This document shows positions 1,242 through 6,412 of a stretch of DNA of 64,000 bases, piece by piece. Within the stretch, counting starts at the first letter, position 1. Each line of letters begins with the position of its first letter. Source of the DNA: Escherichia coli 042 (GTDB lineage: Bacteria > Pseudomonadota > Gammaproteobacteria > Enterobacterales > Enterobacteriaceae); assembly GCF_000027125.1 (NCBI RefSeq), contig NC_017626.1. One strand, given 5' to 3'. A model generated the notes under the pieces. The model saw only the letters and a list, made by a program, of their open reading frames with translations, was not told the DNA's origin and did not search any database. Position numbers and translations under genes: made by a program.

Positions 1242-2744
1242 ATGCTGAAAAGGAAAAAAGTAAAACCAATTACCCTTCGTGATGTCACCATTATTGATGA
1301 CGGTAAACTGCGTAAAGCCATTACCGCAGCATCACTGGGTAATGCAATGGAATGGTTTGATTTTGGTGTTTATGGTTTTGTTGCTTACGCATTAGGTAAA
1401 GTTTTTTTCCCGGGGGCTGACCCCAGCGTGCAGATGGTTGCTGCACTTGCCACTTTCTCCGTTCCCTTTCTGATTCGACCGCTTGGCGGACTCTTCTTTG
1501 GTATGTTGGGCGATAAATATGGTCGCCAGAAGATCCTCGCTATCACTATTGTGATTATGTCGATCAGTACGTTCTGTATTGGCTTAATACCGTCCTACGA
1601 CACGATTGGTATTTGGGCACCGATTCTGCTGTTGATCTGTAAGATGGCACAAGGTTTCTCGGTCGGCGGTGAATATACCGGGGCGTCGATATTTGTTGCG
1701 GAATACTCCCCTGACCGTAAACGTGGATTTATGGGCAGCTGGCTGGACTTCGGTTCTATTGCCGGGTTTGTGCTGGGTGCGGGCGTGGTGGTGTTAATTT
1801 CGACCATTGTCGGCGAAGCGAACTTCCTCGACTGGGGCTGGCGTATTCCGTTCTTTATTGCTCTGCCGTTAGGGATTATCGGGCTTTACCTGCGCCATGC
1901 GCTGGAAGAGACCCCGGCGTTCCAGCAGCATGTTGATAAACTGGAGCAGGGCGACCGCGAAGGTTTGCAGGATGGCCCGAAAGTCTCGTTTAAAGAGATT
2001 GCCACCAAACACTGGCGCAGCCTGTTGACATGTATTGGTCTGGTAATTGCCACCAACGTGACTTACTACATGTTGCTGACCTATATGCCGAGTTATTTGT
2101 CGCATAACCTGCATTACTCCGAAGACCACGGGGTGCTGATTATTATCGCCATTATGATCGGTATGCTGTTTGTCCAGCCGGTGATGGGCTTGCTGAGTGA
2201 CCGTTTTGGCCGTCGTCCGTTTGTGCTGCTTGGTAGTGTTGCACTGTTTGTGTTGGCGATCCCGGCGTTTATTCTGATTAACAGTAACGTCATCGGCCTG
2301 ATTTTTGCCGGGTTACTGATGCTGGCGGTGATCCTTAACTGCTTTACGGGCGTTATGGCTTCTACCTTGCCAGCGATGTTCCCGACGCATATCCGATACA
2401 GCGCGCTGGCGGCGGCATTTAATATTTCGGTGCTGGTTGCCGGTCTGACGCCAACACTGGCGGCCTGGCTGGTCGAAAGCTCGCAGAATCTGATGATGCC
2501 TGCCTATTACCTGATGGTAGTGGCGGTGGTTGGTTTAATCACCGGCGTAACCATGAAAGAGACGGCAAATCGTCCGTTGAAAGGTGCGACACCGGCGGCG
2601 TCAGATATACAGGAAGCGAAGGAAATTCTCGTCGAGCATTACGATAATATCGAGCAGAAAATCGATGATATTGACCACGAGATTGCCGATTTGCAGGCGA
2701 AACGTACTCGCCTGGTGCAGCAACATCCGCGAATTGATGAATAA
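1242..2744 (+). CDS. proP: Proline/glycine-betaine:H+ symporter ProP (MFS)
   Basis: ORF 1209-2744; N-terminus MLKRKKVKPITLRDVTIIDDGKLRK and C-terminal coiled-coil tail match ProP. Internal Met at codon 12 gives the expected 500 aa. Confidence 0.93.
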   Translation: MLKRKKVKPITLRDVTIIDDGKLRKAITAASLGNAMEWFDFGVYGFVAYALGKVFFPGADPSVQMVAALATFSVPFLIRPLGGLFFGMLGDKYGRQKILAITIVIMSISTFCIGLIPSYDTIGIWAPILLLICKMAQGFSVGGEYTGASIFVAEYSPDRKRGFMGSWLDFGSIAGFVLGAGVVVLISTIVGEANFLDWGWRIPFFIALPLGIIGLYLRHALEETPAFQQHVDKLEQGDREGLQDGPKVSFKEIATKHWRSLLTCIGLVIATNVTYYMLLTYMPSYLSHNLHYSEDHGVLIIIAIMIGMLFVQPVMGLLSDRFGRRPFVLLGSVALFVLAIPAFILINSNVIGLIFAGLLMLAVILNCFTGVMASTLPAMFPTHIRYSALAAAFNISVLVAGLTPTLAAWLVESSQNLMMPAYYLMVVAVVGLITGVTMKETANRPLKGATPAASDIQEAKEILVEHYDNIEQKIDDIDHEIADLQAKRTRLVQQHPRIDE

Positions 2745-2756
2745 GCTGAAACGGAT

Positions 2757-2785
2757 GGCCTGATGTGACGCTGTCTTATCAGGCC
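2757..2785. repeat. REP-like palindromic unit downstream of proP
   Basis: Imperfect palindrome ggcctgatg...cttatcaggcc just after the proP stop, resembling E. coli REP/PU elements. Confidence 0.45.
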
Positions 2786-2855
2786 AATTGAAGTCTTAAG
2801 GTTCACTTAATCTCTGACGCGCATACTCTCCTCCAGGTTAACGGAGGAGAGTGCA

Positions 2856-2945
2856 ATGAAAAACCGTGTTTATGAAAGTTTAACTACCGTGTTCAGCGTG
2901 CTGGTGGTCAGCAGCTTTCTTTATATCTGGTTTGCCACGTACTGA
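2856..2945 (+). CDS. pmrR: 29-aa membrane peptide PmrR-like (not in the supplied ORF track)
   Basis: Manual translation of atg at 2856 gives MKNRVYESLTTVFSVLVVSSFLYIWFATY then TGA. Hydrophobic single-TM peptide located between proP and basS, convergently overlapping the basS 3' end; preceded by hairpin ctctcctcc-aggttaac-ggaggagag. Confidence 0.6.
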   Translation: MKNRVYESLTTVFSVLVVSSFLYIWFATY

Positions 2946-4021
2946 TCTTTCTTCAGCCGTACCCAGGCCCGCGTGCCGGAAGTCTCTTGCCGGTTTTGCA
3001 GGAAAAACTGCCCGTGATGCAACTGTGTAATGCGGCTGACAATACTTAACCCCAGACCAATCCCGCCATAACGGCTGTCCATACGTACAAACGCTTTACT
3101 CAACTCCCCGCATTTACTCTCATCAATACCCGGTCCTTCATCTTCAACGGCCATGACCGCTCCGCCATCTTCTTGCAGCTTAATCATAATGTTGCTGCCT
3201 TGCGGGCTGTAACGATGGGCGTTTTCTACCAGGTTTCGCAATAACATCCGCAGCAGGGTTGCATCACCTTGAACGGTGATGTCGGCGGCGCTCTCTGGCA
3301 ATAGCAGGGTTTGCTGTCGCTGGTCGAGCATGGTACTGAGTTCGTCATACGAGGGGAGAATGACATCTTCCAGCAGTTTTACATGTTGATAATTACCGGA
3401 AGAAAATGACTGTCCGGCACGCGCCAGTTGCAGCAGCTGGGAGACACTCTCCATCATCTGATCAAGCCGTGCCACTAACGGTGCTACATCAATGTGATGC
3501 GTTTTCGCCAGCAGTTCCAGATGCAAACGCACCCCCGCCAGTGGCGTTCGCAGTTCGTGCGCGACGTCAGCGGTAAACAACCTTTCGTTATCCAGCGTGC
3601 TGGTCAGGCGACTGACCAGATCGTTCAACGCCGAAACCACCGCTTCGATTTCGAGGGTGGCGCTGTGAATGGCAATAGGCGTTAAGTTGTCGGCGGTGCG
3701 CGCTTCCAGCTCTTTTTGCAGCTCCGCCAGCGGCCGGGTGATGCGGCGTACCGCCTGATAGCAGATAAATAGCGTCAGGCTGACCATAAAGACGCCGGGG
3801 ACGATCAGGCTGGCGACCGCCTCGCGGATCTCACGCATGATGTGGCGATCGTTGTTGCGATTGTCGCGTAGCGCCTGCTCAAACAGCTGAATCTGCTCGG
3901 TACTTTCATGCCATAGCCAGAAGACGCTGATCAGCTCAAACACCAACAAAATGGCCCCAATGGTCAATATCAGCCGTTGGCGCAGCGATATTGGTCGGCG
4001 CAGAAAACGCATCAGATTCAA
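2921..4021 (-). CDS. basS: Sensor histidine kinase BasS/PmrB
   Basis: ORF with HisKA motif (FTADVAHELRTPLAG) and HATPase region (GGIGLGLSIV), directly downstream of basR. True start may be the Met three codons in (MRFLRRP, coordinate 4012). Confidence 0.92.
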   Translation of the reverse strand: MNLMRFLRRPISLRQRLILTIGAILLVFELISVFWLWHESTEQIQLFEQALRDNRNNDRHIMREIREAVASLIVPGVFMVSLTLFICYQAVRRITRPLAELQKELEARTADNLTPIAIHSATLEIEAVVSALNDLVSRLTSTLDNERLFTADVAHELRTPLAGVRLHLELLAKTHHIDVAPLVARLDQMMESVSQLLQLARAGQSFSSGNYQHVKLLEDVILPSYDELSTMLDQRQQTLLLPESAADITVQGDATLLRMLLRNLVENAHRYSPQGSNIMIKLQEDGGAVMAVEDEGPGIDESKCGELSKAFVRMDSRYGGIGLGLSIVSRITQLHHGQFFLQNRQETSGTRAWVRLKKDQYVANQI

Positions 4022-6330: not shown

Positions 6331-6378
6331 CACGGTGTTTCCATCGAACAAAGTGCGCATATGCTCGCAAAGCAAAAT

Positions 6379-6412
6379 TAAGCCAACCTTAAGTTCTTAA
6401 GGTTGGCTTTTA
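6379..6412 (-). terminator. Rho-independent terminator downstream of adiC
   Basis: Perfect stem agccaaccttaag/cttaaggttggct with T-run, between the adiC stop and the eptA start. Confidence 0.55.

Follow-up and report, generated by a model that had tools for sequence, protein, structure and literature searches.

The 29-codon reading frame that runs convergently into the 3' end of basS in the window, the whole 64-kb stretch of Escherichia coli 042 DNA analysed here, is pmrR itself and more than a PmrR-like frame. The best overall explanation of the feature, held with near certainty, is that it is pmrR, the known member of the BasS-BasR (PmrB-PmrA) regulon. The gene, its peptide, its regulation and its role in lipid A modification and in resistance to polymyxin and bile have already been published, so the finding is right and brings nothing new. 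Directly ahead of the start codon lies a hairpin that covers the Shine-Dalgarno (SD) sequence. Judged by the covariation of its arms, this hairpin is under selection for pairing, and it appears, from the geometry of the promoter, to lie outside the BasR-driven mRNA. A joint reading, tentative and given somewhat less than an even chance, holds that the stem is a promoter-selective gate through which BasR-driven mRNA would be translated and RNA from proP or uvrB silenced, that it may shape the 3' end of the eptA-basRS transcript, and that PmrR is distributed more widely than annotation indicates.

An initial annotation of this DNA had described a 29-aa, PmrA-activated membrane peptide between proP and basS, its last 25 nt overlapping the basS stop region and its SD held in a preceding hairpin, and this description is borne out throughout. 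The frame begins with ATG and lies between the proP stop codon at 2742-2744 and the basS stop codon at 2921-2923 (minus strand), which falls within its own last codons. Eleven open reading frames of at least 20 aa overlap positions 2500-3200, so a length of 29 codons alone is within chance expectation; it is the exact database match, together with conservation and purifying selection, that puts the identity of pmrR beyond doubt. Comparison with annotated pmrR, which had been suggested as a check, returns the same gene in MG1655 and in 5408 of the 5426 complete E. coli genomes, these being the genomes matched by a 301-nt query around the frame. The feature under that match is annotated "pmrR: LpxT activity modulator PmrR", lies between proP and pmrB and matches the DNA at 100%. 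Its MG1655 counterpart is b4703, annotated as "small regulatory membrane protein PmrR", and protein databases give the exact peptide the name PmrR (PMRR_ECOLI in UniProt). The NCBIfam equivalog NF033224 matches positions 1-29 of 29 at 74.2 bits against a cut-off of 30, while Pfam holds no family for the 29-aa peptide, its best match reaching 11.9 bits against a cut-off of 25. The window differs from MG1655 by 125 mismatches in 8740 nt, about 1.4% over 8.7 kb, and represents another strain of E. coli.

The peptide has the composition of a small membrane protein. The first eight residues (MKNRVYES) are polar, and the stretch 9-27 (LTTVFSVLVVSSFLYIWFA) is hydrophobic, with a mean Kyte-Doolittle hydropathy of 1.94, giving a single hydrophobic membrane segment in 29 aa that fits the PmrR size class of about 29-30 aa. 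Across genera the peptide alignment is gapless with F21 and W25 invariant, and the dN/dS of the frame is 0.14-0.21 in three clades. The coding sequence also holds a terminator-like stem, TGCTGG-tgg-TCAGCA followed by GCTTTCTTTA, at 2899-2913 (+), about 30 nt ahead of the pmrR stop codon and present in the Rfam STnc630 consensus as well. Termination at this stem would yield a non-stop mRNA, and the stem may simply reflect conserved codons.

PmrR reportedly inhibits LpxT directly, according to the work of Kato et al. in Salmonella in 2012. Translation of the frame, for which ribosome profiling had been proposed in the initial annotation, has already been followed by initiation profiling in E. 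coli, where Ribo-RET reads at the pmrR start site rise 5-fold in low Mg2+ (PMC11429745). In the same work, PmrR-6xHis fractionates with membranes, and a pmrR deletion lowers growth yield in low Mg2+, a defect that is complemented by a plasmid copy but not by a copy whose ATG is changed to TAA; overexpression is harmful as well (PMC11429745). These low-Mg2+ growth defects of deletion or overexpression are independent of lpxT, which suggests that LpxT may not be the sole target of PmrR, and reporters fused to the sequence ahead of pmrR show no low-Mg2+ response (PMC11429745). Deletion of the pmrR PmrA box in PmrA-constitutive E. coli abolishes PmrR function and renders cells polymyxin-sensitive and deoxycholate-resistant, and an added lpxT deletion restores polymyxin resistance in this mutant, an epistasis that places PmrR upstream of LpxT (PMC8129183). 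E. coli B adapted to Fe(III) has raised levels of pmrR mRNA, along with those of eptA, arn and basR (PMC13405929).

Table 1. Features of the pmrR locus, in window coordinates
Feature	Position	Strand	Basis or remark
REP-like palindrome GGCCTGAT...ATCAGGCC	2757-2785	+	between proP stop codon and pmrR promoter
PmrA (BasR) box, CTTAAG-GTTCA-CTTAAT = CTTAAGGTTCACTTAAT, activator site of pmrR	2795-2811	+	exact match to YTTAAK-N5-YTTAAK
-10-like hexamer CATACT	2822-2827	+	exactly 10 bp past PmrA box; putative function
Conserved hairpin	2825-2852	+	fold, covariation and Rfam STnc630 consensus
Predicted PmrA-dependent transcription start	2834-2836	+	promoter geometry; about 7 nt past -10 hexamer
Shine-Dalgarno sequence GGAGGAG	2843-2849	+	6 nt ahead of ATG
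pmrR coding sequence	2856-2945	+	ATG start, 29 aa, MKNRVYESLTTVFSVLVVSSFLYIWFATY
Published RNA 3' end (Term-seq, MG1655 4332116)	2856	+	PMC7815308, supplementary file 1
pmrR/basS convergent reading-frame overlap, 25 nt	2921-2945	both	ORF map and MG1655 annotation
basS (pmrB), sensor kinase gene, convergent with pmrR	2921-4012	-	ORF and MG1655 annotation transferred by offset
Published Rho-dependent termination region (MG1655 4332468, Rho score 8.6)	3208	+	PMC7815308, supplementary file 2

The elements that make up the promoter are collected in Table 1. The PmrA box is perfect, and its pattern occurs twice in the window where 0.07 matches are expected. The second match, at 6377-6393 (-), belongs to the eptA promoter (6361-6393, -), in which the box CTTAAGGTTGGCTTAAT is followed after 10 bp by GAGCAT, the same spacing as at pmrR. 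Across 43 aligned promoters, a NANNNT-type hexamer stands 10 bp past the box in identical alignment columns, and the GAGG core of the SD is nearly invariant. This layout of box, 10 bp and hexamer suggests that the PmrA box lies over the -35 region and that transcription starts where Table 1 places it; with a start at about 2835, the predicted pmrR 5' UTR would be about 21 nt long. A sigma-70 consensus scan of positions 2650-3050 found no promoter, as expected for an activator-dependent promoter that is devoid of a -35 element. The Cappable-seq and SMRT-Cappable-seq supplements hold no entry near the predicted start, and a literature search returned no usable figure for the spacing between a PmrA box and its start site. 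Two neighbouring features may be added. The eptA promoter carries an extra half-site-like TTAAGAA directly upstream of its PmrA box. The REP-like palindrome folds as a hairpin in a model of the read-through RNA; it is not followed by a T-tract, and no Term-seq 3' end is listed there.

Conservation in related genomes, whose absence the initial annotation had named as part of what would refute it, was found on comparing 80 enterobacterial loci collected through BasS, since 57 of them carry a frame of 29-30 codons convergent with pmrB. The carriers include Escherichia, Citrobacter, Klebsiella, Raoultella, Kluyvera, Kosakonia, Phytobacter, Pseudocitrobacter, Trabulsiella and Enterobacter, among others; within the 80 loci, the frame is absent from seven Enterobacteriaceae loci and from all Pectobacterium, Rahnella, Rouxiella and Serratia-type loci. 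Almost every one of the 57 loci with the frame has a PmrA box 56-63 nt ahead of the start codon. The coding overlap between pmrR and pmrB spans -8 to +57 nt across genera, which marks the 25-nt overlap of the window as incidental, with no conserved regulatory feature. The pmrCAB-pmrR module adjoins proP in Escherichia and Citrobacter (loci L002-L008) and uvrB in most other Enterobacteriaceae (L010-L064), and this upstream neighbour, be it proP or uvrB, is co-directional with pmrR in every genus.

Outside the Escherichia type, the peptides score 0-22 bits against NF033224, below its cut-off of 30. Klebsiella, Raoultella, Kosakonia, Kluyvera, Phytobacter and Enterobacter nonetheless carry a 30-aa positional orthologue, such as that at 3550-3642 (-) of the K. 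pneumoniae locus L024. These Klebsiella-type orthologues share the PmrA box and the SD hairpin and are labelled "hypothetical" or "uncharacterised" in databases. Judged by position and shared promoter elements, the range of PmrR may extend well beyond its present annotation. Two further observations concern the sequence ahead of the gene. In K. pneumoniae, an intrinsic terminator of uvrB, AAGGCCGC-gtt-GCGGCCTT preceded by an A-run (L024, 3703-3721, -), abuts the PmrA box, and the box itself constitutes the T-tract. This terminator looks bidirectional and may also stop pmrCAB transcription once it has passed in antisense through the whole pmrR gene and its promoter. In the Escherichia loci L002 and L005, a single substitution places an in-frame ATG ahead of the hairpin (3658-3696, -), giving a formal 42-codon frame, MCILSSRLTEESAMK..., whose start is probably unused, as it precedes the predicted transcription start.

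The hairpin consists of a 5' arm, ACTCTCCTCC (2825-2834), complementary to the SD, an 8-nt loop (2835-2842) and a 3' arm, GGAGGAGAGT (2843-2852), that together form a 10-bp stem. The 5' arm overlaps the -10 hexamer and the discriminator, while the 3' arm contains the SD and so covers the pmrR ribosome-binding site. The 61-nt stretch 2815-2875 has a minimum free energy of -22.7 kcal/mol (z = -3.96), and just one of 200 shuffled sequences folds as well. Across 43 distinct promoters, 84% of the stem cells are paired, compared with 36-54% when the partner arm is slid, and 52 cells carry double changes against 19 in shuffles, a count reached by none of 500 shuffles. The covarying pairs flank the GAGG core, and one of the pairs is found as C-G, A-U, G-C and G-U. 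As a canonical intrinsic terminator the hairpin was ruled out on either strand, because no T-tract follows it.

Published RNA ends show that the stem is transcribed. Term-seq in LB at an OD600 of about 2.0 places a + strand 3' end at the A of the pmrR ATG (PMC7815308), 4 nt past the stem. The flanking sequence printed with this end is identical to window positions 2806-2866, and no other end is listed in the roughly 140 nt past the proP stop codon that were searched. The + strand thus gives rise to an RNA that includes the stem. The Rho-dependent region of Table 1, a strong one, is antisense to basS, about 260 nt past the pmrR stop codon, and is likely the end of transcripts that pass through pmrR. 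Neither the 3' end nor the Rho region has apparently been discussed in relation to pmrR or proP. The 5' arm lies upstream of the predicted start of BasR-driven transcription, so that this mRNA should be devoid of the arm and its SD free. The predicted structures agree in direction: RNA beginning at 2835 has a local structure of -7.6 kcal/mol compared with -23.9 kcal/mol for RNA beginning at 2825, and the mean unpaired probability of the SD is 0.41 versus 0.23, a modest gain in accessibility.

As a member of the regulon, pmrR is switched on when phospho-BasR binds the PmrA box, overlapping the -35 region; transcription would start at about 2835 to give a short leader with a strong SD. As the literature shows, PmrR is translated from this mRNA and enters the inner membrane by way of one hydrophobic segment. 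There it inhibits LpxT, which attaches a second phosphate to lipid A at position 1, an action established by genetics in E. coli and reported as direct in Salmonella. Position 1 is thereby left for phosphoethanolamine addition by EptA, the negative charge of the surface falls, polymyxin resistance rises and deoxycholate resistance drops. Under the proposed gate, RNAs reading in from proP would carry both arms and have their SD locked in a stem of about -20 kcal/mol. On such RNAs pmrR would remain untranslated, Rho would terminate transcription in the region antisense to basS, and the terminated RNA would be trimmed back to the stem, leaving a stable 3' end. Against the gate stand the modest size of the predicted gain in SD accessibility, the equal stability of the stem on the minus strand, and the canonical uvrB terminator ahead of the PmrA box in K. 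pneumoniae, which lessens the need for insulation there.

The stem pairs equally well on the other strand and may for this reason have a part in forming the 3' end of the eptA-basRS mRNA as well. Taken further, this becomes an alternative in which the hairpin acts on the minus strand, as a stem-loop in the 3' UTR of that mRNA that serves as a 3'-end or expression element, and in which the overlap with the SD is secondary. Such a role, as the main one, is less likely than not. The stem is a nearly perfect palindrome and is equally stable on the minus strand, with 25 loci favouring each strand by minimum free energy, and about 92% of its pairs are Watson-Crick, as would be expected of a stem that has to form on both strands; when wobble positions are counted symmetrically, the + strand is weakly favoured, 22 versus 12. 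Plasmid constructs speak to the same point. A pmrB insert with 86 bp of downstream sequence conferred neither colistin resistance nor lipid A modification, an insert with 103 bp conferred resistance, and the level of pmrB mRNA differed among constructs with 0, 86 and 126 bp (PMC8004244). Mapped by their primers, the 86-bp insert ends at 2834 and has neither the 5' arm nor the -10 hexamer, the 103-bp insert ends at 2817 and includes hairpin and hexamer but not the box, and the 126-bp insert ends at 2795 and includes the full box. The series thus fits the rebuilding of the pmrR promoter, first the -10 hexamer and then the PmrA box, as well as it fits a minus-strand stem, and these constructs do not discriminate between the two. 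The half-life of the mRNA was unchanged (PMC8004244), which counts against the minus-strand role, as do several features of the locus. On the minus strand the stem is not followed by a T-tract; Term-seq lists no minus-strand 3' end there, in media in which basS is poorly expressed; and in K. pneumoniae the canonical, bidirectional-looking terminator lies further downstream, past the pmrR promoter.

A second alternative keeps the hairpin on the + strand and places it inside the BasR-driven pmrR mRNA. Transcription would then start upstream of 2825, and the stem would hold PmrR at a low level, either as a brake on translation or as a stabiliser of the 5' terminus. Losing PmrR does harm, and so does having it in excess (PMC11429745), which suggests tight dosage control, and the Rfam consensus puts the stem within the modelled RNA. 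The promoter leaves little room for such a start, however: just 13 bp separate the end of the PmrA box (2811) from the start of the 5' arm (2825), and that arm shares its first bases with the conserved -10-like hexamer, so that a start upstream of the stem misfits an activator box over the -35 region. Moreover, hardly any initiation would be expected if a stem of about -20 kcal/mol covered so strong an SD, yet Ribo-RET sees initiation induced. These constraints make a hairpin inside the BasR-driven mRNA improbable, and the promoter-selective gate, with the stem carried by read-through RNA, is preferred.

That the transcript is the non-coding sRNA STnc630 and its reading frame incidental is barely credible: Rfam RF02052, "Enterobacterial sRNA STnc630", does match 2787-2952 (+) at 181.4 bits against a gathering score of 55, but the model extends over PmrA box, SD and complete frame and so describes the pmrR promoter plus its mRNA, the frame stays intact with a dN/dS of 0.14-0.21 across genera that share little nucleotide identity, and published work documents ribosomes initiating at the frame, a tagged product bound to the membrane and a phenotype that depends on the start codon (PMC11429745). 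A literature search found no mention of the name "STnc630". As the sole function of the locus, a non-coding RNA is contradicted; a second role at the RNA level is possible.

The initial annotation had called the frame unlisted. It was indeed absent from the list of open reading frames, because that list had a 60-aa minimum, but its annotation is not missing from databases. The case of pmrR illustrates how a 60-aa filter hides real, functional small genes. If true, the promoter-selective gate would explain how the dosage-sensitive PmrR stays silent while the osmotically induced proP is transcribed. The reading of the hairpin together with the promoter also offers an alternative view of the requirement for sequence 3' of pmrB in colistin resistance (PMC8004244). 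The orthologue listed as a "hypothetical protein" in Klebsiella and Enterobacter resides in clinically important genomes and is relevant to studies of polymyxin resistance.

A comparison with known systems places the gene and its hairpin separately. At the level of the gene there is no difference from PmrR of Salmonella enterica and E. coli (NF033224, PMRR_ECOLI, b4703): the gene is the same and the peptide identical, its position facing pmrB/basS is shared, and so are the PmrA box of its promoter and the one hydrophobic helix. PmrR resembles MgrB and MgtS, small regulators in the inner membrane that belong to the low-Mg2+ and envelope response, in having fewer than 50 aa and one transmembrane helix, in its induction by a two-component system and in binding a larger membrane protein (PMC11429745). 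It differs from them in its target, which is LpxT and not PhoQ or MgtA, in its regulator, BasR/PmrA, and in its sequence, and it shares no homology with either. The consensus structure of Rfam RF02052, which covers the pmrR locus, includes the SD hairpin; Rfam lists the family as an sRNA gene, but the pmrR region comprises a promoter and a protein-coding mRNA. In the transposase genes of IS10 and IS50, the ribosome-binding site pairs with sequence that lies ahead of the point where the gene's own transcription begins, and only transcripts from outside promoters are translationally silenced by this fold-back. The likeness to the pmrR stem, in which read-through RNA would pair upstream sequence with the SD, is a functional analogy only. 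Unlike these transposase genes, pmrR is chromosomal and activator-dependent, its start site is predicted, and its stem also marks an RNA 3' end.
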